From positions 99,696,001-99,760,000 of the forward strand of contig OX597817.1 of assembly GCA_951406725.2 (NCBI GenBank): 64,000 nt of DNA, read 5' to 3'. Position numbers and translations under genes: made by a program. Shown here piece by piece: positions 1,195-50,249 of this stretch. Origin of the DNA: Octopus vulgaris (Eukaryota). Below the pieces are notes generated by a model. It did no database searches, was not told where the DNA came from, and worked only from the letters and a program-made list of their open reading frames with translations. The stretch's first letter is position 1; each line of letters starts with the position of its first letter.

Positions 1195-2430
1195 TATGAT
1201 GGCCATCCACTCATGACTGAGGAAGACTATTGCTGACCCTCAGGAACATTGTGCGCATTAGGAATAACTTATATTTTGCATTTGTGGCTCTGTTGGTGAC
1301 TTATGAGCCCTGCTTTTGACAAGCATACATGACAGCGAACATTGCAGACCAAGCTTTCCCCATTCACCACACCAGCAGTGCGCTTTCGAGCAGCACACTT
1401 GAGTTCTTCATGCAGAATATGTGCTCTCTCAAAAGTGTCAACCCCCTCCTTAAGCTGCTTCCTCCATCTGTGGTGATGACAGGCATTGCTCTCCCAGTCA
1501 GTTTCCTGCATATCACAGGCCTTTAAGGAGGACTTGCCAGGCTCTCTTTCCATTCACAAGTTCTCCATATAGCATGTGCTTAGGGATCCTACTATCCTTC
1601 ATTCTAATAAGGTGTCCAGTCCAACGTAACCAGTGATTGTGCACCATCACCCCAATACTTGAGATATCAGCTGTCCTCAGGAGTTTTTAAGGTCCAGCCA
1701 ATATGCAGAATGTGTCTGAGACATCTCTGATGAAAGCATTCAAGGACACTTACATGACATTTGTAAAGGGTCCATTTCTCGCATGAGTAAATGAGCGATG
1801 TCAGTACACATGCACAGTTCACAGCAATTTTTGTTTGCTTTGTGATGCCATGCTGGGACCAGATACGAGACAAAAGAGACTGGAAGGAATCAGTTGCTCT
1901 CTGCAGCCTGAAAAATATTTCATCATCCAGGGAGCAAGAACAACTGAGTGTGCTGCCCAGGTAGACAAATTTGTCTACCACTTTCAGAATTGTTCCTTCA
2001 ACCAAGACAGCTGGTTCCACATATGGATTTTCTGGTGCAGGCTGGAACATTACAACAGTCTTGTTCAGGCTAATGTTTAGTCCAAATGCCTTGCAAGAAG
2101 AACAATTATAATTCATAAGTATTTGCATGTCATCCACTGTATGTGCAACTAAGTCACAGTCATCTGCATAAAGGAAGTCATGAATAAGAGACTGGAAAAC
2201 TTTTGAATTGGCAGCAAATTGGCGCAGATTAGAAAGGCAGCCAGAAGATTGATACCTGACATATATTCCCATAGAGCTAACCTTAGCAAAGGCATGAGTA
2301 AAAACAGCAGCACAGTACAAAGAAAAGAGAGTTGGAGCAAGGATGTCACTCTGCTTGACACCATTCTCCACAGGAATGAGGCCTCCATCCCATCATGAAA
2401 TGATTTAATTATAGATACAAAGTGATCCAG
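1195..2430 (-). mobile_element. 5'-truncated RTE/BovB-type LINE, RT pseudogene (distinct from the 46-50 kb family)
   Basis: ORF 1667..2371: GVKQ..LAPTLF, LYADD, FGL.ISL.KT, FVYLGS; ORF 1269..1553 ends in a C2H2-like C...C.SKAGLISH.QSH tail; 3' end abuts (TA)n. Confidence 0.85.
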
Positions 2431-2597
2431 ACATATAGATCTTCTTATACAGGTAAATCGTTACATAATTTAATTTAAACTTAACTTTAAATCCTGTATA
2501 TATGAGGATCTGAATGTATCAAAACATTTGTAGTGATTTAAAAGCTGCCTAACCATACTTACTCTTCCTTTTGACTCTATTACTTTTTACTTTATAC

Positions 2598-2653
<56 letters not shown>

Positions 2654-2771
2654 CAGTAAATAAATGAATACATACCTACAGCGGTTGGACAAAATAATGG
2701 AACCATCTTAAAATTTCAAACAAATTTATTTTAATATGGGGTAGGACTGCATTTGGCAGTAATTACAGCTT

Positions 2772-5460
2772 GGAGTGGAGAAAGCAGTGTAAGAGCAGTC
2801 GACGGAAGAGAAGTATACTGTGAAGGTGTTACAGATGCGCAGATTGTGGTGCAGGGAATAAGGCTGATGCTGCGAGCAATTGTAGTTGGCCACTTGGTAG
2901 ATGAGATTGACGTGGTGATGGGGATGGATGCAATCACCTGTTTGGGAGGTGTCACCTTTAACGAAGCCGGTGTAACGTTCGGGTTTGCGGGGAAACCGTG
3001 TATGGCGAGACCATGCACTGGTGAGAACTGTGAAGAAAAGCATGCTGCACACACCATTGAAGACCAGGACATTCGGGCGTCTTCAATGGCCAGAGGTGGA
3101 CAGTGAAGTGGCACTGGAAGGGAGAACCCCCGATGTTAAAAAATAAAGTGGGCTGCTATCAGCGTACTCTAAAAGGAGATGCCAGAAGTGAGTTCGAGGG
3201 AGAGGTGGAGCGGTGGATTAAGGAGGGCATATTGATCCCTTGGGAAAAAGAAGAGAGCAGAGTCCTGCCACTGATGGCGGTGATACAGCCCACAAAGCAT
3301 AAGGTCAGGCCAGTGCTTGACTTCCGAGAGCTAAATGACCACGTATCATGTCATACAGGCGGTGAGGCCACAGATGTCTGCAGAGACACCTTGCGAGAGT
3401 GGAGACAGATGACAGGGGCCTCCACGATCGTCGATTTGAAGTCAGCATACCTACAGGTACATGTGGCTCAGAAACTGTGGAAGTATCAGCTTGTTAGGTA
3501 TAAGGGCCGGACGTACTCTCTGACCAGGTTGGGGTTCAGGCTGAATTCAGCACCAAAGATTATGGCAACAATTCTCAAGGCCATCCTGGGAAAGGTGGAC
3601 AGAGTAAAAAAGGGAACCAATTCATATATTGATGATATTCTGGTGGATGAAACCATAATGCCAGCAACGGAGGTCATAGGCCACCTGAAGCGTTTTGGAC
3701 TGATCGCCAAGCCACCAGAGGCAATGGAGGGAGGTGCTGCACTGGGCCTCAAGCTATGGAGAGACAAGGCCAGCGCACTGGTGTTCTGGTGAGGGAACGA
3801 GATCCTCAAACTGGGCACCAGCATGAGTAGATAGGAACTGTTCTCGGTGTGGGGGAAGCTGGTGGGACACTACCCAATTGCAGGATGGCTCCGGACAGCA
3901 TGTAGCTTCATCAAGAGATGAACCAAAGGAGTGAAGTGATATGAAAGAGTGGGGGAGAACACGACCGACATGATACAGGAAGTCTTGGTCAGAGTAAGAG
4001 CAGAGGATTCAGTGAGGGCAGTTGGTATGTTCCCAAATCAAAGAGCAGGATTGTATGGTGTGACGCCAGCAGCATCGCAATAGGGATTGTCTTAGAAGTG
4101 GGAGGTGTCATGGTGGAAGATGCAGCCTGGCTCAGGAAGACGGATGACTGCAATCATATCAATGTGGCGGAGTTGGATGCCGTGTTGAAGGGAGTGAACC
4201 TAGCCTTGAAGTGGGGGCTGCACACCATAGAAATCAGGACTGATTCGGCCACTGTACTTGGTTGAGTGATAGCAGTCATCACCAATGAGTAGATGGTGTG
4301 AACCAAAGGGGCTGCAGAGATGCTGGTAAAGTGTCAATTGGGGATACTGCGTGAACTAACCACTGAGTTCAATCTGAAGCTGAGTGTGATCTTTGTGCCT
4401 TCCAAGAAGAACAGGGCAGACATCCTGACCAGGGTAAAGCGAGCCTGGTTGCAAATGCCAGAGGATGCGGAGCAGGCTGTGGCTGCAGTATGCCATCTGA
4501 GTGACTCGGAGTTGAGGAGATTGCATACCATGCATCACAGGGGGGTGGACAGGACGTTGTTTCTAGCCAGGAAAGTTGACTCCGATGTAACAAGACGGAG
4601 TGTACAGAGAGTGGTTAGCAGCTGTGACAGGTGCCAGTCCATTGAGGCAGGAAGTATTCCAGTGGACCACGACTGGAAACGACTAGCAGTGGACATAACA
4701 CACTACCGGCAGGGGACATACCTCTCAATGGTTGACTGTGGACCGGGGCGGTTGGCCATATTGAGGGAGATGAAGATGGGGACCGCAGAGGAAATTGTGA
4801 AAGTATTGAATGAGATATTCCTGGAACGAAGCCCCGTGGATGAACTGCTTCTGGATAATGGCACTGCATTTCACTCGGAGGTGCTGAAAGAAATGCTTGA
4901 TGGGTGGAAGGTCAACCACTTCTTCAGGGCGGCATACCGGCCAAGTGGAAATGGGGTGGTGGAAAGGCATCATCGTACCATCAAGACCATGGTAGAGAGT
5001 GGCCACATTTCACCAATCAAGGCTGTATTTTGGTACAATATGTTGCCAAGGTCAGGACAGGCTGAGGAGTTGGTGCCACACAGGGCAATATTCAGGTACG
5101 AGTGGAGGCATCCATGTACTGTATCAATACGACCCGGGGCAGAGGAAGAGCATGCCTTCGTGCAGGACGGGGAAGAAGTTTGGGTAAAACCCCCAAATGC
5201 ACGGTGTACATCACAATGGGGAAAGGGAACAATAAACTCCACCAATTCAAAGAACAATGTCTCTGTCGATGGTATGCCATGCCACGTTTTGGATGTACTG
5301 AATATTGTCCAAGCCTCAGAGGATGGAACCAGCAGCAGTGGGCAAGAAGACGAAGACAACAACAGTTGGCAAGAAGATGAAGACAACATCAGTAAACAAG
5401 ATGATGAAGCCAGCAGCAACATGCCAGGAACTCAGGCCAGTCCTAGAGTCGTACTGTGAC
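2772..5460 (+). pseudogene. Ty3/Gypsy LTR retrotransposon pol (protease-RT-RNaseH-integrase), disrupted
   Basis: Protease C-part (VVMGMD), RT (RPVLDFRELN, DLKSAY, YIDD), RNase H (WCDAS, HINVAEL, TDS), integrase (H-H-C-C, VDI, LLDNG, NGVVERHHRTIK) in Gypsy order; several stops and frameshifts. Confidence 0.92.
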
Positions 5461-5578
5461 CACAGAGGGAGCAGCACCCTCTTCCCTGGTTGGCTGATTA
5501 TGAAACCAGTTAAGGTGTGAGTTCGGGAGCGAGGAGTGAGTGGGAAAGCCGGCTGAATGATCTGTAGATCAGGGGGCG

Positions 5579-5875
5579 TGTGGTGTTAGTGGTGTTACAG
5601 GCTGTGATGAGCTATGTGGTGTTGGTGGAGAGGATGACAGATGAGGTGGGTGGAAGTAAGGCTTGCAGGGGCCAGTGGAAGAGTGAAAGGGGCATGCGTG
5701 GGCAGGAAGCATGTGTGGTCAGCAAGCACATGTGGTCAGTTCCAGCAAAGAGCGCAGAGCGAAAAGATGTGTTGAATTTGTGAGAGTGACCGCTGATTTC
5801 GCCGAGGTAAGGCCTTTTGTATTTCTTTCCCCCATTGCTTCTTTTTCTGTTGTTCTTTTCCTCCATCACACTACA
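5579..5875 (+). repeat. 3' LTR of the Gypsy element
   Basis: Purine tract AGGGGGCG directly before TGTGGTGT; ends ACACTACA (inverted terminal match 7/8, TG...CA); no 5' LTR present. Confidence 0.7.
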
Positions 5876-6224
5876 CAACACTAATAATAAATCAAAAAAC
5901 ATAAAAATAAACAAGCTTTTGATGGTTTTATAGATATTTCAAAGTTATGATGCTAGGTGTTTCCATTATTTTGTCCAACCCCTGTATATATTACTAAATG
6001 AATGATAAAAGAACAGGAGTTACATAATCATATTCATTGACTTACAGTTATGTTTGTTATAAGAAACTCATATTTGACAGACAGATAGATATAGATATTT
6101 ATGTTTATATGTAAAAATATATACATATTCATGCATATATGTACATGTGTATATATACATACATGTATATATATATAAATACACACACACACACACATAT
6201 ATATATATAATATTAACTAGCACA

Positions 6225-6740
6225 TCCAACATAACTTGGATGTGTTGTTAATACTGCCCTAGTAGACTGGGGTGAACATTCCCCCAAAATCGTTTTGTAT
6301 CGACAACAAATGCTAAGAAGCATTGAAATTCTATTAGTTGACAAAATTTTGTCACAACCAGTGGATGGCAGACCTGTATTATGTGATTTCATGATATAGT
6401 GTATTATAGTGTACTACAGTGTAGTATAGTATATTATCAGTGACAAAAAATCAGTCAAGCTGATACAGAATAATACTGGCCAAACAGCCAGTAGTATCAC
6501 AAAGAGCTTGCATGCTGTGTATAAAATTAGCTATTTGTGAAAGAAGCAGGTTTTGTAACAAATATTAATTAACACATCTAACATAACTTGGATGTGTTGT
6601 GTATAACATTGTAACTGCAGTGAATGTCCTGAAAAATCATTGTGTAGATGACAAATGCTAAGAAGCATCAAAATTCTATCAATTGACAGAATTTCATCAG
6701 CACTGGTGAATGGCACTACTGAATCACATGATTTCACTGT
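6225..6740. repeat. Diverged tandem duplication, ~350 bp period
   Basis: aacataacttggatgtgttg at ~6228 and ~6580; acaaatgctaagaagcat..aaattctat at ~6306 and ~6651. Confidence 0.7.
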
Positions 6741-7055
6741 ATTGCGGATCATCATCAGAAACTAGCCAAGCACCAAATGCCAGACCAAAATGTGCTGATT
6801 AATATTCATTACAAAGGTTGTTTCTGTCGCTAATAGCTAATTTATATACAGCCTACCAGCTTTTTTGCAACATGACTTGCTGTTTGCCCAGTATCACTCT
6901 GATTGATTTTCAGTCTGGCATTCAGTGCATGGCTATATCAAAGTGCATATGTGTGTATGTCTTAGTGTACCTGTGTATGTGTCAAAATATATGTATATAT
7001 GTATCTATATATACACATATGTTTGTGTAAGTGTACGTGTATATATGTGTATATG

Positions 7056-9152
7056 CAGAGATGGGTACCACTAATCGAAAAGTTGACTTTGTTAATTGTT
7101 AATTCTTTGAAAATGCAACAGAAGTCAACGTCAATCCGTTAATGTTAACTTTTAAAGGTATAACTACAGTTTAATACCCGACCAACTTTGTTGCCTCATA
7201 ACTTCCAGAAAAAAATGGATACTTTTTAACAAAACTTTCACCAAATAATTGCTTATATCCTGTAGATTGAGTGTATCTAAAGATTTGTTGGGAAAACATT
7301 TTCTGAGGGGTTGGGGAGAGGAGTTTTAGAAAATTCACAGGACCCGACATTTTCCCCTTTATAACATCCTGGAAAACAGGTATCTTTTAATGAAATTTTA
7401 TATAGATACCTTTCAAACAGTGTAGATTACAATTACAAAGAAATTTGTAGGCAAAATGTTTGGAAGGGGGTAGGGGGAAGAGTTTCTGGAAAACAGAGTT
7501 TTGGATCAGATGGCCCACATAAGATGGAATTTCTCCATTTTGATAGAGATTTTTTCCAATGTTTTTCACCAAAGTCTTCAAAATTATGGGAGGCATCTTT
7601 TCATGGAAAAAAAAACTTTGAAAATTTTTTTCGCTCTCATAACCCCCTCACCACCCCAGTCTGAAACGATTTTGGCCATTTTGTTTTTTCACTACGCACT
7701 TAAAACCTGTGAGAGAAACATTTTCAGTTTAAAAAAAAAAATTGTTAATAATTTCAGAGGAAAATGTGTGATTTAAAGGAAATCTGGCAGTTGTTTCTAG
7801 CACATCCCAAAACATTCCTCCTCGTTTCTTTCTCACTCACATATCTATTGATATTTCTCAATATTTTTCTCCCCATAAAAAAATTTTTATGGAATGATGA
7901 TGTCAAAGTAACACATGTGTAGTTCCAACTGAGTGAGGCCATGTTATGTGTGTGTGTAATGAAAAAAAAAAACATCTAGAAACATCTTTAGTGTTCATAT
8001 TAATCTATCAAATGTTTTACTCATTTGTTCACGTTATTTTGAATTATTCAGGTTCAAGATACTTGCTTGTAAATTTTTTACATACAGATTTGAAATTTTG
8101 TCAGTGGGTGCTTTATATACCACTGGTTTATAGTTATGTAATTTTAGCTCATCTTACTGAGTAAATTTTCATGGGCAGGTAAATTTAATTAACATGTGTA
8201 AAATCAATAACATTATGGATAAACACTAAAATTGAAATTTTTAATGCATCTTACCTATTTGATTTGTTACTAAAATTATCCCAGATGGCAACCAACAAAA
8301 ATTTTGCCACTTTTGAAGATGATGTACTTTAATTTGAATTAATTGAAATACAGGTATTATTGGTACAAGATTTTATTCTTTCAGTAAATATTTTGTATCT
8401 AGGTGTGGAATAATTTTTTTGCTCAGTTTTTTTTTTGGGTGCATTTACTGTAGCTAACCTCCAAAGTATCTAACCTTCCGCAATGTATCTAACCTGCCGC
8501 AAGTTACTTTTTTCAGGAAAAGAAAGGTGGGTGGGGTGGTGGGAACCTCAAAGTTTCCCACCAAGGGAATTTTGTTTTGTGGGTCTTTTTGTCTTTTCCA
8601 GGTTATTTTGCATGCTTTCAACGAATGTGACATCAAAATCACATGCAAATGGCTCCTTTTCCCAGAAAAGGAAATATTTTGTTGCTATTTCTAGCATGTC
8701 TCACTACCTCGTAACAGCTATTTGCATTCACACCAAAATATTTGCATTCACACCGAAATATTTACCAACTTTTTCCTTCCATTTATTTTTTCCCCTTTAT
8801 GGGAGTCAATATTTTCTCTGTTGACATCCACCTCACTGAGGTCATGGATCAACTGGAAACGCATCAATCACTGTTCCCTCTTGATAGGACAAAGAAATTT
8901 CCCACTGTCTTTGCAAGCAACAAGCGGGTGGATTTGGTTTCAAATCCAGCCAAGGCCAAATGAGATCCCAGAAGTTATTTATAATAATAAGTGGTCTTAT
9001 AGCGGAGTTGAAAGAATGACGTGTACAATATTAAACATGCTAAGACAATCTGAAAACAATAGAAAGTTTTAAGTGTTTACTGGTTTTTATGAAATTTTAT
9101 GAATTTAACGGACTTGAGTTAATGGAAGCTAAATGTAACAGAAGTTAATTAG
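7056..9152. mobile_element. Non-autonomous DNA-transposon-like repeat (hAT-like CAGAGATGGG end), composite
   Basis: Starts CAGAGATGGG with GTTAA/TTAAC subterminal motifs; 8555-9150 is homologous to 22900-23450. Confidence 0.5.
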
Positions 9153-21153: not shown

Positions 21154-22251
21154 CTCTTCAATTGAAACCACTAAACCCTATACACCTCCTACACCACTCA
21201 CATCTCTAAATCCAGAACTACTTACCTCCCTTACAAATAATCTTTTTTCTCGGGAACTATTAGACCTGACACCGTATATTAACTGGCGTTGTTCAAACGA
21301 TGAATAGCTTCGCGTAAACCATTGGTTCATTTTGTTCTCTTACTTTATTATCATCTTATAATCATCTCATAATAATGACCTTTATGACTCGTATTACTAC
21401 CTCAGTCAATCTAAATGTATATATTTGTCGCTACCTGTCATAAATAGCCGTTTTCTATTTGCAATATGCATTTTCGTTGATTTTTCATATTTTACCCTTA
21501 CATTTCCACATGTATTTTATATTTTCTTTTCGTAACATATTTCTACTATGTATATATATATATATATATACATGCATATATACACACATGAGTCATCTAA
21601 GAGACCATAAGTCAGGGAGAAGTTGCACTCATATATCTGTCAACAGAGTGAATATATTATCCAAAATGTATAGTATTATATATCCATCACAGCTGATCTT
21701 ACCACCTGGTTTTGCACAAGGAATACAATGGAGTGTTAGGTAACAATCTGGTTGTATAACCTTACGCTCATCAGAGTTATCCAACATGGAAGGGAATATG
21801 GTGACTACTCTCCATTGTCAGAGGTGGATTAACACAATTGGTGTGCGGTTACTGTAAAAAAGGTGGTGAAATGAGAAAAGACAAGGGGATTAGGTTAGGA
21901 CATTCCCACAAAAGCACCACACTTAATGATGCACACTTTCACCAAAAACACATCAAGATAATTCTCATCAGTCTCACAGCTTACCTACCAAGGGACATAA
22001 TTCCTAACCTAATCCCCTGGCCCTTTCTCGTTTCACCACCTTTTTCACAGTAACTGCACACCAGTTGTGTTAGTCCACCTCTCTTTTGCTGAACTGCTAA
22101 GTTATGAGGACATAAAAGCATTAAGTCAAGCAGTGGAGTTAAGGACAAACACACACACACATTATATATATTATTCGAAATTATCCATCATGGCTGATCT
22201 TACCAAATGGTTTCATGCAATAGAGAGCAGTCGCCATATTCCTTCCATATC

Positions 22252-22342
22252 AGCTAACTCTGATGAGTTTAAGATTATATAATCAGTTTGTTACCTAGCA
22301 CTCCATTGTATTCCTTGCATGAAACCAATTGGTAAGATCAGC
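22252..22342 (+). ncRNA. Hammerhead ribozyme-like motif with long stem II insertion (second, inverted copy at 21690-21780)
   Basis: CTGATGA (22260) ... GAAAC-caattg-GTA with palindromic ACCAATTGGT stem III; stem I imperfect. Confidence 0.6.
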
Positions 22343-22899
22343 CATGATGGATAATTTTGAATAATATATATAATATGTGTGTGTGTTTGTCCTTAACTCC
22401 ACTGCTTGACTTAATGCTTTTATGTCCTCATAACTTAGCAGTTCAGCAAAAGAGACTGACAGAATAAGCATCAGGCTTTAATAAAAATAACTGGGGCTGA
22501 TTCATTTGACTAAAAAGTTTTCAAAGTAGTGCCCCAGCATGACCACAGTCTAATTGGCTGAAACAAATAAAAGATAAAGATAGTGTTTCCACAAGTATTT
22601 TTCAACCAAATTTTCATATCAAATTCAACCAATATATAAGAAACAACTGGGACACCAAATATATTCAGCTCTTGAAAATGAGACTATACAAGTTTGAAAA
22701 ACATTGAATATGAATTTAGAGACTCTATTATTCCAGGAAAAAAATAAAAAACCCAAGAAAATATGCAAGTCTCAGATGAAAATGATGAAACTTGAACATA
22801 ATCATGTATTTAGGCTGCCTCAAAGATGAGTGACAATGATCTCATCTTTGTGGCTGGGATTTCAATAGGTATGTCAGACATGGTATCTGCCATAGTATC

Positions 22900-26653: not shown

Positions 26654-28413
26654 TATATAAAAATGAAAATAAAAATGAAAATAAAAAATTACTTTGAAAA
26701 TTACGAAGAACCAAGTGAAATATGAAAAATTATAAATTACAAATATATATAGATCAAGAGGTGAAATAAACCAGAAATGAATGGTAGGAAGGCAATCATT
26801 GTTTAGACAAAGAGAAATATGAAAAGTGATGGTAGATTATAATTTATAGAAAAAATTATAAATCCTGAATATTATAAAATTATAGTTGGAAAATTGGAAG
26901 GAGCTGAACATAGAAGGTTGGTGAAACCAAAAATCTGTTTAAATGTTTAAAACATGAGTGTGAAAAATTAGCAGATATAAGCTAATTAGGGTTAGCAAAA
27001 ATTGTAGTATAATGTCAGTGATGTAACTGGATGCTAGTATTTCATATATAAGAGCTGTAACAATCATAAACTGACAATCGGATGAACATACATCCCAAAA
27101 TAGAGGACATAATAGTAGTGGAGTAAGAAGTGAATAGAGGGATGGTTTGTAGGGGTAAGTAGGTAGAACATTAAACCTGTTATGGAGCTGTGGGCAGATG
27201 ACTGTGGAATGGTATAGGGTCACTCATCAAGAAAGCTCCATAGTATACAATACACTGGGGTTGGGGTGGGGGTCAGTATGCTGGGGGAGAGTATCTATGT
27301 GTGGAGGGGAAAATAACTAAGGGATGGAGGGGAGGGAAACTAAACTATGTAAGTTTTGCAAAGGTCCTATAGTATTTATGTGGGCACCATATCAGAACTT
27401 CATTTCACTGTTACTACTGTCAGTAATACCTTCCACTGCTTCAAAATTTTAAACAGAGATTTTATAATCATGTCCGTTCTTTTAAGAACTACAGTAAGCC
27501 TAAGTCCACATCACTAGCAGAGGACCCCATATTTGATTTCTTTGACTGTGGTGACGTCTGCACTCCCATACATATGGGAGGAGGAGGTGAATGCAATCTA
27601 TGCACAGCCGATGCACTAGAGATATTACACAATAAGGGTAATAATATTAACAAAAGATGTGTATGTGTGCATATGTGTGTGTGTGGATATATATATATAT
27701 ATATATATATGCCTATGTATCACTAACTATTTCTCTGCCTTTACATTTTATCTTTTTATTTAGCCATACATACTTTAACTTACATACTTTAACTTACATA
27801 CTTTATAATTCTTTTGACCAATCTTTAATTAAACTCTAAATTAATAATTTCTGCTTTAACTTTTAGCCAATACTGCCCCTATTAGAGTTCCCGTCTTTTT
27901 CTGTTTCTCTTTGCATCTCTTTTTCCCTTGCCTACACACACCAGGGTCACAAAGTAGGTCTGCTAGCTGGGAGGCAATTTATGCTACTCTAGCACAGACC
28001 ACACTACTACAGACCCCAAGGAGGAGAAATTCAACCACATAGACTCCATGTTACTGTTAATCTCTTCAATTCAGTGAGGGTCAATTGAACCAGCTCAGCT
28101 ACAAAGATCTGCACCCATCCACTAAGGAATTGGCTCAGTAGATAAGATGCTTTAATGATACTATTACCTGTCAACCTAACTCAATGGGTAAAGTTAAAGA
28201 ATTCAGTACATAGGTATCACACATTCTGAATGAAATAGACAAGATCCAGTGCACCTCCATCATTACCAGTTTGCTGGTGGCACCAGCTCAACAGGGCAAC
28301 CCAACTGAAATGACCCAATTGGTGACATGGTATATTTCTTCATCTTGACAATGCTCATTCCCAAGTCGTTAATTTGACTGAAAATGCTATACAAAAGAGT
28401 TCAGTTGGCATTA

Positions 28414-39122: not shown

Positions 39123-39343
39123 ACATCCGCATATACGCATAAATATTAATACACTTTCCTATACTGTGTCAGGGAACTTTCGCACACACATATATATATA
39201 TATTTTTAAATATATACCTGCGCACTCATACGTACAAGTAAAACCCATATTTATATTTAAAAATATATATATATATGTGTGTGCGAAAGTTCCCTGACAC
39301 AGTATAGGAAAGTGTATTAATATTTATGCGTATATGCGGATGT
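39123..39343. repeat. Perfect 92-bp inverted repeat with 37-bp spacer
   Basis: 39123-39214 is the exact reverse complement of 39252-39343. Confidence 0.95.
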
Positions 39344-39368
39344 ATATATATATTTTATATATATATAA

Positions 39369-39898
39369 TGAAGTATATTTGCCACCTAAATATGGCTAAC
39401 CCTTGTGGGATTATGCTACTGTAGTTTATATCCCCAGGAAGACATCTCCTCCAGCTGGCTAACGACACACTGTCTGTGCCCGATCAGTATTTGCGAAGGG
39501 AAATCATCGTTCCCATCTCTAGCCTGATGTGATATACACGGACCCAGGTTTCTGAGCAGTAACCCATCATCAGCGTGTAACAATCACCAGCTAGAGATGA
39601 GAAGTGATCTTGAATGCAAATACATATGCTTTTTCTGGTGACAAAAAGTTGCTGATCCTGAAAAAGGAGAAAAACACAATAGTAAATCTCTGAGTGAGAT
39701 GTAAACAGTAGCAGCATGACATCGTGAAGTATATTTGCCACCTAAATATGACTGACCCATATGGGACGATGTTACTACAGTTTATAGCCCCAGGAAGACA
39801 TCTCCTCCAGCTGGCTAACAACACATTGTCTGTGCCTGATCAGTATTTGTGAAGGGAAATCATCGTTCCCATCTCTAGCCTGACATGACACACAGGGT
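39369..39898 (-). repeat. 356-bp unit in ~1.5 tandem copies with hammerhead (pLTR-like or retrozyme-like)
   Basis: tgaagtatatttgccacctaaatatg at 39369 and 39725; agcctga at 39521 and 39877. Confidence 0.85.
39535..39579 (-). ncRNA. Canonical type I hammerhead ribozyme (GUC site)
   Basis: Minus strand tacacg-CTGATGA-tgggt tact gctca-GAAAC-ctgg-GTC-cgtgta; perfect 6-bp stem I, 5-bp stem II. Confidence 0.88.
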
Positions 39899-40427
39899 CT
39901 GTAATGAAACAAAACAAGGTCCAGAGGATTGGGCTAGGAGTTATGTCCCTTGGTTGGGTATGCTGTGAAGCTGGCAAGAGTTATCTTGAAGTGGGGAAAG
40001 CCTGTATTGATAATGTGGTGTCCCTGTAGGGATAGGGTGTGTGACATGGGGTGTGTGGTATGTGTAGCAGTGTTGTATGTATATTTTTATCCAGGTGTGT
40101 AGGTATATATAGCAGTGTTCATTGGTCTGTTTTCTTTCAGTAAAGGATAAAGTTGTGGGTTTTTTGTTACATTAGTGTGAGGTGTGTAATGTGTGCGTGA
40201 GTGTGTGTGGGGGGTCTGTGTGAGTATAATTTGAGTGAGGGAGTATGTGTTGGGAGTGGTGGGAGATAGTTATTTACAAGGTGTCTGCCTTATAGGGGTG
40301 TGTATGTGTGTGTCTTGGTCAAACTTTTTTGCCAGGTTCTAGGTCATTGGTGGAAGGTCGTTTGCAGAAGTTTAAGACATGGGACCTGTGGTTGCAGTCA
40401 TGGTGTGGCGTGCAGATACGATAGAAT

Positions 40428-41460
40428 CTACTTCCTTTCATGCAGGCAAGGAGTAAACACCTCACTCCTGCTACTCAGGTAAACATCTGGGTGTTGGGTA
40501 TCTTTTAGAATCGCTCTCTTCTCAGCTAGGCATAATCTAAACTTCCTGCTGCTACTGAAGTATGGCTTGCACCTTTCTAGAATCTTCCACTTTATTCTGT
40601 ACTCCATTGTGTTTTCTTTCAAAGCTCAGATGTGCCTGGCTAGGGTTGTGGCATTACGTCTCTCTGGGATGTTGAATCAGAACTTGTGGTTATTAAAACA
40701 GGTTCTGAAGAGACCTTCAGTTGCCCCCACATATTTCCACATGCTAGGTTGTCTATTGGGTCCTGCTGCTGTTGCTTCTGCTTCATAAACAACTGTTTCC
40801 ATATTGCAGTGGCCATTTAGTGGACAAGTTGTGTTACCCCTGCATGAACATCCTGCCTCAGTCTCGGGTCTTGGCCAACCTACTAAAATATTTTTTACAC
40901 TAGGTGCACAGCTAAAGGATAATCTCTGGGTATGTCTATTAAATATTTTGTTGAATCTATTGGTACGGGGGAAGTGTCTATCAACTAAACTAAGGAAGAT
41001 CTTACCTACTCTGGTCCTAATGTTTAAAGAGAATGGTGGTGTGAAGCACAGTACTTTCCGGTGGCACTTTCCCTTGGTGGAGCTAGGGTCTGGCATGTAA
41101 CTAATACTATCCTTGAAACTGCTGGCAGCCAGAGCCTGGTTGTAGTGTTGGACGGCAGCATCAAAGATCTCTCTGCTTGAAGACAAGCTGGAGATTCTCC
41201 CACTGATGCCCTTAACCAGGTTCCTGAACACTATGGCTGGATGGCAGGAACCTGTGTTAATGTAAGACAACATCTCATTTGGTTTCCTAAAGGGTCTATA
41301 GGCACCTGATTCCAGGTCCAGGGTCGCGTGAAAGAAATCTGTTTTCAGGTTGGTCTCTATAGTGACTTTCAGTTCGAGGGAGTTCATGGTACTTGTGAGG
41401 TCCTTTCCGAGCCTATCTAGCTTTGGCCTCTACAGGGACGATGCATTGGCAATATCACAT
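40428..41460 (-). pseudogene. Penelope-like element (Naiad-like) RT C-terminus + GIY-YIG, 5'-truncated
   Basis: PFRKPN..L.YIN..SCHP, F.PPFS, CSCRGNTTCPLNGHC linker, VVYEA...YVGATE..F...FNNHK, LCLAEK..I. Confidence 0.85.
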
Positions 41461-46189: not shown

Positions 46190-49100
46190 ATCATCATCAT
46201 CATCATCATCATTTAGCGTCCGTTTTCCATGCTAGCATGGGTTGGACGGTTCTGCTGGGGTCTGTGAAGCCAGAAGGCTTCATCAGGCCCAGTCAAATCT
46301 GGCAGTGTTTCTACGGCTGGATGCCCTTCCTAACGCCAACCACTCCGTGAGTGTAGTGGGTGCTTTTTACGTGCCACCCGCACTGGTGCCAGCCAGAGCT
46401 GGCAAACGGCCACGAACGGATGGTGTTTTTTATGTGCCACCGGCACGAGGGCCAGGCGAGGCTGGCAACGAACACGAAACGGGGCGGTGCTGGCAACGGT
46501 CACGAAACGGAAGGTTCTCTTACATGCCACCGGCACTGGTAACACATCTGCAATTTCCATTGATCGATTTCCATTGATCGATTTCGATTCTGATCCTCAC
46601 TTGCCTCAATGGGTCTTCACAAGCAGAGTTTCGACATGCCACCGGCACTGGTAGCACATCCGCAATTTCCATTGATCGATTTCGATTCTGATCCTCACTT
46701 GCCTCAACACGTCTTCACAAGTAGAGTTTTGTGTCCCAAGAAGGGAAGGTATGCATACGTAGGCTGGCTCCATCCCATGTAGAAGGCCACGGGTTGTGGA
46801 CTCACTTGTCCTGCCGGGTCTTCTCGCGCACAGCACACTTCCAGAGGTCTCGGTCTCTAGTCATTTCCTCGGTGAGACCTAAAGTTCGAAGGTCGTGCTT
46901 CACCACCTCGTCCCAGGTTTTCCTGGGTCTGCCTCTTCCACAGGTTCCCTCAACCGCTAGGGTGTGGCACTTTTTCACACAACTATCTTCATCCATTCTC
47001 GCCACATGACCATACCAGCGCAAACGTCTCTCTTGCACACCACAACTGATGCTTCTTAGGTCCAGCTTTTCTCTCAAGGTACTTACACTCTGCCGAGTGT
47101 GAGTACTGGCATTACACATCCATCGGAGCATACTGGCTTCATTTCTAGCGAGCTTACGCATATCCTCAGCAGTCACGGCCCATGTTTCACTGCCATGTAG
47201 CATGGCTGTTCGTACACACGCATCATACAGTCTGCCTTTCACTCTGTGCGAGAGGCCTTTTGTCACCAGCAGAGGTAAGAGCTCTCTGAACTTTGCCCAA
47301 GCTATTCTTACTCTAGCAGTTACACTTTCAGCACACCCGCCCCCGCTGCTGACTTGGTCACCTAGGTAACGGAAACTATCAACTATTTCTAGTTTTTCTC
47401 CCTGGAAAGTGACAGAAGTTGGTCTCAGAGCATTTTCAGTGTTTATTGTTCCTGAGCATCTGCCACATACAAAAACCATCTTCCTAGTTAGCCTTCCTTT
47501 GACATTGCTGCATCTCTTATGTGTCCATAGCTTACACTTGGTGCATCTTATAGAGTTTCTACCTACACCTTTTCTACAGATCGAGCAGGGCCATCTACCT
47601 GAAGGTGTTTGTGATTTGTCTACCTTCCTACTGATTACGACTTTGGTTTTAGCTAGATTGACTCTGAGGCCCTTCGATTCTAATCCTTGTTTCCACACCT
47701 GAAACTTCTCCTCCAGTTCTGATAGTGACTCAGCAATTAGAGCAAGGTCATCAGCATAGAGGAGCTCCCAAGGGCATCCTGTCTTGAATTCCTCCGTTAT
47801 TGCCTGGAGGACTATGATAAATAGGAGGGGGCTGAGTACTGAGCCTTGGTGGACCCCTACCTCTACCCGGAATTCTTCACTGTACTCATTTCCAACCCTC
47901 ACCCTACTAGCGGCGTCCCTATACATGGCCCGCACAGCTCTCACTAACCATTCATCTATCCCTAGTTTTCTCATTGCCCACCAGATAAGGGATCGGGGGA
48001 CCCTGTCGAAGGCTTTCTCCATGTCAACAAAAGCCAGGTACAGGGGCTTATCTTTGGCTAGGTATTTCTCCTGCAGCTGCCTTACCAGGAATATAGCATC
48101 AGTAGTACTTTTCCCTGGCACAAACCCAAACTGCATCTCATCTAAACTAACTCTCTCTCTAATTAGTTGGGCTATGACCCTCTCCGTAACCTTCATCACC
48201 TGGTCCAACAGCTTGATACCTCTGTAGTTGTTTGTATCTAGGGCATCACCTTTACCTTTGTAGCAGTTGACTATTATACTGCTACACCAGTCATTGGGTA
48301 TGACCCCTTTGTGTATCACCTGATTAACTATATGGGTGACTAGGCTATAGCCGACACTACCAGACATTTTGAGCATCTCTGCAGTGATTCCTGATGGGCC
48401 TGGGGCTTTCCCTGTCTTCATGCTTCTAATTGCCTTAGCTACCACAGAACTATCAACTCGGATAGCTGGTCCCTCTGTTGGGTCAACATTCGGCAGACTC
48501 TCTTTATCCCATTCATTTTCTTCATTCAGCAACCTTTCATAGTGGCATCTCCAAACCTCTCTCTTTGCATCCTCATTTAGCGCAAGTGAACCATCTTCCA
48601 TGCGAACACACTTCTCTCCTACCACATCACGATTCTCTCTCACACACTGTCTTGCAACACGAAACACCTCCAGTCTTTGGTCCTCACGGCGCAGAACATT
48701 GGCAAATTTTTTCTTATCTGCTTCCCCTCTGGCTAAATAAACCTGTCTCCTAGCTTCTCTTTTGGCAGTCTGATACAATTCCCTGCTACCCCCATTTTTC
48801 CAGACCTTCCAAGCCTGTCTCTTTTCTCTAATAGCCCTGTCTACAATATTGTTCCACCACCACGTTATTCTAGGTCGAGAGGGGACTTTGCACCAGCCAC
48901 AGATCTGGTCAGTGGCTCTCAGCAGGTTGTCCCTTAGAAACGTCCAGCTGTCTTCTACCCCCTGTGATGCTCTATCCCCTTCTACTTCGTCAGAGGCTTC
49001 AAGTAATATGTCCCTAAATCTCTGTCCATTTGCAGGATCTTTAAGCTTCCAGATCCTTCTTCTCCATATTTGTCGTCTTCTGGTTGTCCTCCTAGTCCTG

Positions 49101-50249
49101 ATCCTAAAGTCACTAACTACCAGTCTATGTTGTGGGGTACATTCTTCACCTGGGAAGGTTTTGGCATTTATAAGCAGCCATCTCTCCCTTTGCCTTGTAA
49201 GGATGTAGTCAATTTGGCTGGTATGTTGGCCCGATTGGTAAGTGACTAGGTGGCTGGTAGGTTTCCTGAAGTTAGTGTTGCAAATCATAAGATTATTTGC
49301 ATCGCAGAACTCCAGCAGCCTGGTTCCCTCCTCGTTGCGGGAGCCATAGCCGTAGCCTCCATGTACGCCATGGAAGCCCCCAGCATGTCGTCCAACGTGA
49401 CCATTGAAGTCACCAGCCACAAAGATAAGGTCTCTGTCGTTCGTCAATGAGGTAGTCTGCAGTAGAGTGTCATAGAATCGGTCTTTCTGTCCATCGGGTA
49501 GCCCCGACTGAGGAGCATAGGCTGATATAATGGTTGCTAAACTATGATGAAGCACTAATCTAATCTTAAGTATTCTGTCACTTACTCTGATTACCTCAAT
49601 TACTTTATCTACCCATTTCTCAGCGATAAGTATACCCACGCCACCAACCCCGTCAGTATTCCCTGCCCAGAAAATCTTGTACCTGCGTTCCTTGCCTGTG
49701 AGGAACCTAGCTGATCCTCCTCTCCACCTTATTTCTTGCATGCAACATATATCCACACATCTCCGTTCAAGCATCTCGACTATCTCACCAGACCTACCTT
49801 TCAGAGTGCCAACGTTGAGGGTGCCAACCCTGAGGGTGTGGAAGGCATGGGCTCTAGAGACCCTGGGACGGTGGACAGTAGCTTCGTGTACCTGAAAAGA
49901 AAACTCGCATTTGGCAGAATTCATGTGCAAAAAATGAAGTAGTAAAGTAGCCTTCAGTACAACCTGCATAACGCTAGCCTTTCATATTTTGCACTGTATG
50001 AACATTACCTTACATAGGTCGAGACTAGGGGTAGGGAGGGGTAGGGATGGTGAGAGCATTTGCAGTCTTCATGGGAAGCAACCCCGGAATGGAAGAGAAT
50101 AGGAACTTCCGGCATGCGTGGTGGGGGTGGGAGGGCGGGTGCACCGTAGCTGAGTAAAGAGGTTCTGTTAATCGTGAGCTAGCAAATGGGTTAGTATGAA
50201 TCGGGAGACAATACTAATTGAAAAATTGAAAAATCAGAGTGGCTATGAA
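46190..50249 (-). mobile_element. Apparently full-length RTE-clade LINE
   Basis: (GAT)n tail at 46190-46212, 3' UTR with repeat array, intact ORF, ~280 bp putative 5' UTR; no TSD found. Confidence 0.92.
46802..49969 (-). CDS. RTE LINE polyprotein: APE endonuclease + reverse transcriptase with PHD-like insert
   Basis: 1055-aa uninterrupted ORF: TLNVGTL, QE.RW, SAYAP, GDFNGH, IDYIL, QH.LV; KAPGP, YRGIKLL, QFGF, FVDMEKAFD, GVHQGSVLSP, YADD, FRYLG, RLRWYGH, RGRPRKTW. Confidence 0.96.
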   Translation of the reverse strand: MQVVLKATLLLHFLHMNSAKCEFSFQVHEATVHRPRVSRAHAFHTLRVGTLNVGTLKGRSGEIVEMLERRCVDICCMQEIRWRGGSARFLTGKERRYKIFWAGNTDGVGGVGILIAEKWVDKVIEVIRVSDRILKIRLVLHHSLATIISAYAPQSGLPDGQKDRFYDTLLQTTSLTNDRDLIFVAGDFNGHVGRHAGGFHGVHGGYGYGSRNEEGTRLLEFCDANNLMICNTNFRKPTSHLVTYQSGQHTSQIDYILTRQRERWLLINAKTFPGEECTPQHRLVVSDFRIRTRRTTRRRQIWRRRIWKLKDPANGQRFRDILLEASDEVEGDRASQGVEDSWTFLRDNLLRATDQICGWCKVPSRPRITWWWNNIVDRAIREKRQAWKVWKNGGSRELYQTAKREARRQVYLARGEADKKKFANVLRREDQRLEVFRVARQCVRENRDVVGEKCVRMEDGSLALNEDAKREVWRCHYERLLNEENEWDKESLPNVDPTEGPAIRVDSSVVAKAIRSMKTGKAPGPSGITAEMLKMSGSVGYSLVTHIVNQVIHKGVIPNDWCSSIIVNCYKGKGDALDTNNYRGIKLLDQVMKVTERVIAQLIRERVSLDEMQFGFVPGKSTTDAIFLVRQLQEKYLAKDKPLYLAFVDMEKAFDRVPRSLIWWAMRKLGIDEWLVRAVRAMYRDAASRVRVGNEYSEEFRVEVGVHQGSVLSPLLFIIVLQAITEEFKTGCPWELLYADDLALIAESLSELEEKFQVWKQGLESKGLRVNLAKTKVVISRKVDKSQTPSGRWPCSICRKGVGRNSIRCTKCKLWTHKRCSNVKGRLTRKMVFVCGRCSGTINTENALRPTSVTFQGEKLEIVDSFRYLGDQVSSGGGCAESVTARVRIAWAKFRELLPLLVTKGLSHRVKGRLYDACVRTAMLHGSETWAVTAEDMRKLARNEASMLRWMCNASTHTRQSVSTLREKLDLRSISCGVQERRLRWYGHVARMDEDSCVKKCHTLAVEGTCGRGRPRKTWDEVVKHDLRTLGLTEEMTRDRDLWKCAVREKTRQDK

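Follow-up and report, generated by a model that had tools for sequence, protein, structure and literature searches.

Hammerhead ribozymes in Penelope-like elements (PLEs) and in animal retrozymes, and the view of retrozymes as PLE derivatives, have already been published. In the sections of Craig et al. (2021, PMC8557442) that define it, the Hydra clade of PLEs is characterized by a C-terminal GIY-YIG endonuclease, a CxCX5C linker, a CxH end, no CCHH motif, insertion into (TA)n and a terminal hammerhead. The same sections describe Naiad PLEs as having the endonuclease before the reverse transcriptase (RT), no canonical hammerheads, a (TA)n preference and remnants in cephalopods. Non-LTR retrozymes, as summarized in parts of Cervera and de la Pena (2020, PMC7229834) and of Li, Clavereau and Pollet (2026, bioRxiv 10.64898/2026.07.22.740005), are non-coding units, 150-450 nt long and low in GC, that carry a type I hammerhead, have pairing ends and are repeated head to tail; PLEs are proposed there as their mobiliser or parent. 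The cleavage of PLE precursors by hammerheads is treated as a hypothesis in the relevant passages of Cervera and de la Pena (2014, PMC4209133) and PMC8557442. For PAc, a PLE of the anole and the one such element to have been reconstituted (Frangieh et al., 2024), the pertinent sections of PMC11167929 state that uncut RNA was used in vitro, cleavage not being required, report no RNA-seq ends at the cut and trace the PLE tail to two internal RT starts. Among the papers listed by searches of the open literature, no description was found of the family reported here, of a cephalopod retrozyme or of a count of PLE 5' ends at hammerheads.

The window analyzed is a stretch of 64,000 nucleotides of Octopus vulgaris DNA, animal DNA rich in TA microsatellites. 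It contains a short element that shares with non-LTR retrozymes its unit size, type I hammerhead, low GC, pairing ends and head-to-tail repetition. It differs from them in consisting of 1.48 units with one ribozyme and in beginning at the predicted cut, and its copies seem to be mostly 3' fragments in (TA)n. We file it as a retrozyme-like PLE derivative rather than as an active retrozyme. In our best reading, to which we give roughly an even chance, it is a PLE mini-element that was copied by a PLE into (TA)n from an RNA with a hammerhead-cut 5' end. The interest of the locus lies in its boundary at the cut, a possible trace of cleavage in vivo. The features are collected in Table 1.

Table 1. 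Features of the locus within the 64,000-nt window.
Feature	Position	Strand	Remarks
(TA)n target at the 3' end of the insertion	39335..39368	.	From the sequence; Hydra elements insert into (TA)n
Copy B', post-cut +1 to +172	39369..39540	-	Ends directly in the TA microsatellite; from the sequence
Type I hammerhead motif	39535..39579	-	Core 39573-39541, GUC triplet, predicted cut 39541/39540
Inner part of the 356-nt unit	39580..39676	-	Includes the helix I extension 39615-39580
Copy A, post-cut +1 to +220	39677..39897	-	89% identity to 39541-39369; recurrent family 3' end
3' UTR of the Hydra fragment	39898..40427	-	Without a hammerhead of its own (no descriptor hit)
5'-truncated, broken Hydra-clade PLE ORF	40428..41429	-	RT thumb, CxCX5C linker, C-terminal GIY-YIG ending in CxH

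Hammerhead motif and repeat boundary

Positions given as +n or -n are offsets from the predicted cut, +1 being the first base 3' of it, and hammerhead positions are numbered by the standard scheme. A structured type I descriptor was run over both strands of the whole window, with 200 block shuffles of the window as background. It gave a single hit, as against 2 hits in total across the 200 shuffled windows, and this hit is the minus-strand GUC hammerhead that a previous sequence-only reading had placed, with correct coordinates, at this cut. On the minus strand, helix I consists of 39579-39574 paired with 39540-39535 (6 bp), helix II of 39566-39553 (4-5 bp) and helix III of AC-CUGG-GU at 39549-39542 (2 bp with a palindromic loop), C17 being 39541. 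The type I pattern (CUGANGA ... GAAA ... NUH and three helices) is represented by CUGAUGA at 39573-39567, GAAA at 39552-39549 and GUC. The motif had been called fully canonical, which is true of the intact core and triplet but not of helix III, with its 2 bp, nor of helix II, which closes with U-A and thus lacks the G10.1-C11.1 pair, said to be highly conserved in hammerheads in the corresponding section of PMC4209133. An Rfam search gave no hammerhead match at the gathering score nor at E <= 10 (6 weak unrelated matches), so that the hammerhead call rests on the descriptor and on the variation in the family.

The hammerhead fold of the monomer was calculated at -5.4 kcal/mol, vs. -11.9 for the minimum fold of the same 45 nt, and two copies are predicted to pair as an 8-bp helix III self-duplex (-9.8 kcal/mol), as in short palindromic, dimer-type motifs. 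With such a 2-bp palindromic helix III, a partner copy is likely to be needed for cleavage; a short palindromic helix III, efficient as a dimer only, is presented as usual for metazoan hammerheads in part of PMC4209133. The long extension of helix I pairs with the first ~45 post-cut bases, adding ~30 further pairs (fold z = -4.5; 0 of 200 shuffles as good), and the predicted duplex of this 5' arm with the post-cut bases reaches -39.2 for copy B' and -36.8 for copy A. As far as the relevant parts of PMC4209133 and PMC11167929 go, the palindromic dimer-type helix III is shared with the hammerheads of PLE pseudo-LTRs and with Poseidon PAc, and so are the partial tandem, the tail between two 3' ends and the AT-rich target. 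The window hammerhead differs from those described there in that its 6-bp helix I continues in a long extension and that U-A stands in place of G10.1-C11.1, and the locus differs from PAc in having a genomic 5' boundary at the cut, while in the RNA-seq sections of PMC11167929 PAc appears without a sign of cleavage.

The segment 39541-39369 is repeated at 39897-39725 with a period of 356, ungapped and with 89% identity. Between copies A and B', 19 of the 172 post-cut positions differ, 15 of them by transitions. Upstream of 39897 the identity collapses (39898 is a mismatch, 39899 a match, and noise follows), which bears out the earlier observation that similarity is lost at about 39897-39899, 356 nt from the cut, and puts the 5' boundary of copy A no more than about 3 nt from the predicted cut. 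By a rough, after-the-fact estimate, a random junction in the ~300-nt segment would fall so near the cut about 2 times in 100. The resulting mini-element is 528 nt long and the window holds no further copy of it. Its 356-nt unit has stops in all three sense frames and is therefore non-coding, of retrozyme size and with a type I hammerhead. Copy B' ends at +172, 48 nt short of the end of copy A at +220, which resembles a PLE tail.

The unit had been proposed to be a ribozyme-processed monomer running from cut to cut. The boundary at the predicted cut agrees with this, but the locus has one hammerhead only and therefore could not release a 356-nt monomer. This matters for the possibility of a true non-LTR retrozyme family as in mussels, with abundant 356-nt circles inserted by more-than-unit reverse transcription around the circle. 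The unit size is within the 350-390 nt of the mussel retrozyme as given in part of PMC7229834, the helices (6 bp, 4-5 bp and short palindromic) are of the type called canonical for metazoans in part of PMC4209133, and the whole unit folds more stably than shuffles (z -2.2 to -4.0), with its ends paired. Yet reverse transcription around a circle would have no reason to stop at the cut site, whereas a linear cut RNA gives one; the descriptor found no hammerhead upstream of 39897, which leaves the locus below the two units required in the relevant section of bioRxiv 10.64898/2026.07.22.740005; and no multimer joint was present among the 15 joints listed (212 more). We consider this origin improbable.

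Some further traits of the element and its surroundings must be mentioned. An ATG at 39625, a weak lead as a remnant ORF start, reads MYLH, like the MDLH of Hydra-1_Obim by eye; the starts of other close proteins are unlike MYLH, and this ATG lies at +272, outside the +142 to +186 of the relatives. Pyrimidine tracts ending in CAG and resembling splice acceptors are found on the minus strand at 39680-39655 and 39916-39899, the inner one not being conserved as such since most other copies differ at 39658. A perfect inverted repeat of 92 nt (39123-39214 / 39252-39343) follows immediately on the element's 3' end, although the element's own copies are 11% apart; a recent snap-back, conversion or an assembly effect are possible origins of this repeat.

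The PLE ORF, its 3' UTR and the proposed origin

The ORF upstream had been described as a Naiad-like PLE some 500 bp away. It is indeed a PLE on the same strand as the mini-element, with ~530 nt separating its stop from the repeat and ~855 nt from the hammerhead core, but it is broken and belongs to the Hydra clade. It aligned to residues 371-703 of the 716 of a full-length relative, P0005, with 37% identity over 339 columns (E 5e-69). Its frame, 41429-40431, has two in-frame TGA codons (40679 and 40628), its 5' half is missing and the linker starts at 40850. The domain order, RT thumb first and endonuclease last, gives the C-terminal GIY-YIG of the Hydra clade. The linker and cysteine motifs are present as CSCRGNTTC and CLH, the first C being altered in the CxxC that, with CxH, flanks the conserved E and N, and no CCHH occurs; RWK and DKT were found in full-length relatives and belong to a region that is absent from the truncated ORF. 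The TA run at 39368-39335 and a TA/CA-rich tract upstream of 41449 agree with (TA)n insertion, and a hammerhead lies in the terminal region. Judged by alignment and motifs, the ORF is a Hydra-clade PLE with a C-terminal endonuclease. A Naiad identity was rejected, as the endonuclease here is C-terminal and follows the RT, while Naiads have it N-terminally and lack canonical hammerheads; what the locus shares with Naiads is a PLE-type element with (TA)n. At E <= 0.1 the ORF piece matched no Pfam family, and no full-length relative of its protein exceeded 52% identity. The nearest described family is Hydra-1_Obim, with which the fragment shares distinctive stretches by eye; the window family is a different one, with another hammerhead sequence.

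Other decayed or open coding stretches were seen in the window: a second short Hydra-type endonuclease fragment at 27448-27678 (plus strand; E 6e-7), followed by a TA tract; an open LINE-type frame of 1059 residues with endonuclease and RT at 46802-49981 (minus strand), with a PHD/C1-like cysteine stretch just 3' of the RT core, under the Pfam cut-off; and weak RT and integrase matches at 3061-5459 (plus strand) that resemble a decayed LTR retrotransposon.

The last ~130 nt of the Hydra 3' UTR recur in a second 3' end of PLE type (21908-22035, plus strand; nhmmer E 2.3e-9; alignment score 111 vs. a shuffle maximum of 39). This second 3' end extends for ~100 nt more to a different and degenerate hammerhead core and a TA end, and in the sister 3' end at 21900-21690 the degenerate hammerhead likewise stands ~100 nt past the shared UTR. 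The region 21690-22345 consists of two head-to-head copies of the sister end, with degenerate cores at ~21774 (minus) and ~22255 (plus) and TA ends. A candidate antisense hammerhead at 39960-40010 was dropped, its stretch being sense UTR common to the sister family and without descriptor hit. The Hydra fragment seems to be cut short at 39898, without its own hammerhead and 3' end. Downstream of the element, nothing convincing was found of the remainder of its UTR (34 and 80 of 1000 shuffles), and the comparison of the pre-core segment with the Hydra UTR was not significant (153 and 249 of 1000 shuffles). One 18-nt match to the sister family (19 of 1000 shuffles) came from one of several tests.

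These data bear on the possibility that copy A is a 3' cleavage product (cut to +220) that was retro-inserted into the 3' UTR of an older Hydra copy, so that in this UTR 39898 would be followed directly by 39676 and, farther on, by the UTR's own hammerhead. Both ends of A would then be mechanistically defined sites, and the sister hammerhead stands ~100 nt behind the shared UTR, a spacing similar to the one found here if A is subtracted. Against this, target duplication around A was not significant (285 of 1000 shuffles), the inner part showed no significant homology as an extension of the sister UTR (block shuffles, 162 of 1000; full shuffles, 42 of 1000), and other contigs cross 39676 into A-type sequence. 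We regard such an insertion as highly improbable.

In the favored origin, the retrozyme-like mini-element copied by a PLE, one hammerhead of a tandem transcript, the upstream one, would have been cleaved, probably in a dimeric fold joined by the palindromic helix III, with the downstream hammerhead left uncut. The PLE endonuclease would then have nicked (TA)n, with RT starting inside the RNA at +172. The uncut ribozyme and a complete unit would have been reverse-transcribed up to the cut 5' end (39897/39896), where the RT would have run off; it would then have jumped to a Hydra mRNA, entering at the 3' UTR, and left off at about 41425. Template switching is a known behavior of retrotransposon RTs. 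While the anatomy of the locus is observed, we infer the cleavage, the run-off and the template switch. A template switch predicts a Hydra fragment without its own hammerhead, 3' end and downstream remainder, as is observed. The reading also gains from the two 3' ends (+172 and +220), which match the PLE tail of two internal RT starts, and from the layout of the mini-element, which mirrors that of whole Hydra elements, where cut-to-cut equals one monomer.

It had also been suggested that the PLE is the mobilising partner. A PLE as mobiliser is likely, given the 3' end in (TA)n and the 48-nt spacing of the two 3' ends, which resembles a PLE tail; the adjoining ORF family is not established in this role, because the window hammerhead is unlike those of its Hydra relatives. 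With a broken ORF, copies that differ by 11% and a single hammerhead of a kind that cleaves poorly when alone, the locus is probably a dead fossil today. A narrower claim, that the locus is the fossil of a hammerhead cleavage in vivo, in which the PLE RT ran off the ribozyme-made 5' end of a passenger RNA onto its own Hydra mRNA, is in our opinion somewhat doubtful. If it were true, a ribozyme, its non-coding passenger and the mobilising partner would be recorded in one insertion, and a retrozyme would have been caught at birth from a PLE terminus. Caution is also called for with the mini-element reading itself, as it concerns a single locus that was noticed after the fact. The locus provides one positive case and two weak hints, and taken alone it is a decayed transposon fragment.

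Related Hydra loci and copies of the family

Related loci were fetched for the best 80 of 355 confirmed stretches, giving 79 loci, 71 of them with the ORF end; the values for relatives that follow refer to this sample. A hammerhead followed the stop in 40 of the 58 loci with at least 150 nt of downstream DNA. The distance from stop to hammerhead was 44-515 nt (median 109; 42 loci), as compared with ~855 in the window, whose UTR of at least 530 nt is long beside this median, and the post-cut part of 172-220 nt in the window compares with 31-115 nt in the relatives. Helix III was self-complementary in 47 of 50 distinct motifs and helix I had at least 6 bp in 7 of 50, while the ends of the helix II insert were G..C in 13, U..U in 29 and U and A in none of the 50. 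None of 41 relatives folded as stably over -90 to +50 as the window element, and the mini-element matched 0 of the 79 loci. In 14 of 17 rows the ORF started 142-186 nt past an upstream cut (two of the other three have upstream in-frame ATGs and one a more distant hammerhead); therefore, cut-to-cut equals one whole monomer in the Hydra clade. The TA-flanked 3' ends of the relatives fell at +31 to +57 (9) or +105 to +115 (3) in 12 rows. Seven inner 5' junctions near a hammerhead, hand-picked away from contig edges and leaving out an eighth inside the ORF, were at -203, -44, -38, +6, +31, +91 and +93; that none of the seven is at +1 speaks against the mini-element reading.

Other copies of the family were surveyed at 80% likeness in the contigs of 4 runs (X1, X3, X4 and X10) out of 24, and all counts are lower bounds. 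With 4,991 contigs matched in X1, most of them less than 95% alike, the family is multi-copy. At least 40 X1 contigs leave the alignment at the +220 end (39677) with TA-rich letters (agreement 0.47), as do at least 2 in X3, and at least 4 X4 contigs leave it nearby, at 39683. The +220 position in (TA)n is a recurrent family 3' end, a Penelope-type start of reverse transcription. The inner part is reached by other copies as well: at least 24, 16 and 14 X1 contigs carry other letters at 39676, 39658 and 39637, respectively, and in at least 12 X10 contigs another letter stands at 39676 inside the alignment, so that the +220 junction is shared. Among the matches listed, no contig bridged the whole inner part or the 356-nt unit, and a 356-nt family is therefore a putative one. 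Summed depth in X1, which is not a copy number, came to 78,000-255,000 in the post-cut bins; it was lowest in the inner bin, at 1,574, and ranged from 2,100 to 8,500 across the ORF, and the profile of X10 had the same shape. From this summed depth there is a hint that post-cut 3' fragments dominate, mostly without the ORF, and that the inner part is much rarer. The profile of X3 and X4, which are RNA only by guess, mirrors that of the DNA runs; one X4 contig, 215 nt long, covers the segment from the cut site to the family end (about +2 to +216), although contig ends are not RNA ends. A 23-nt pattern taken from the post-cut segment matched no viral contig and no metagenome contig.

This distribution is relevant to a competing explanation, an ordinary PLE partial tandem, in which A and B would be 5'-truncated pLTR pieces stacked behind an unrelated or deleted ORF, the 356 nt would be accidental, no mini-element family would exist and the boundary may have arisen from cleavage or by chance. 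A partial tandem with a tail is the typical PLE arrangement in the relevant part of PMC8557442, and stacked ends of different families occur in three relatives (L019, L027 and L066, among the best 80 of 355). The post-cut part is commoner than the inner part or the ORF, a hint of the 3'-ward rise that 5' truncation gives, and the contigs ending at +220 in TA (at least 40) compare with at least 24 that continue. However, the +220 junction into the inner part is common to several contigs, strong pairing between the post-cut bases and the 5' arm preceding the hammerhead closes the unit, and the hammerhead is unlike the 50 motifs of Hydra relatives (best 80 of 355). On balance we hold an ordinary partial tandem to be rather unlikely. 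A high-copy family with fixed 3' ends allows the role of the hammerhead to be tested by counting 5' boundaries against the cut site; should they peak at +1 across thousands of copies, the genome would directly document that the retrotransposed RNA owes its 5' end to PLE-type hammerheads.

With respect to the ribozyme itself, the helix III variants of other copies, AC-UCGA-GU in X1 and AC-UCGG-GU with a GUA triplet in X4, are both self-complementary. At 39557, where the window copy has G, at least 60 X1 and 59 X10 contigs have A, which would make a U-A pair possible in helix II or would place a loop-2 A facing an unpaired U1.7 (+7), a contact described for hammerheads in part of PMC11875169. 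At least 89 contigs have G at +6 with pairing kept. The family ribozyme looks conserved and the window copy slightly decayed. The only opposite-strand joint inside the element among the 15 joints listed (212 more) has an arm at +7 and is found in 2 contigs; its true edge may be nearer to the cut, because +7 adjoins a site at which the window departs from most other copies.

Minor observations were also made on the copies and the relatives. One X10 group of loose ends (at least 4 contigs) has no GAAA before the triplet. A GAGCAC motif, which the window element does not have, stands 15-30 nt before the start codon in many relatives (5' UTRs of L007, L011, L016, L036, L062 and L069). Finally, L033, L035 and L078 hold whole Hydra elements inserted in TA-rich sites, and the 5' junctions of these elements, at about +31 or +91, fall near the positions of the family 3' ends, as expected of unit-length permuted copies.
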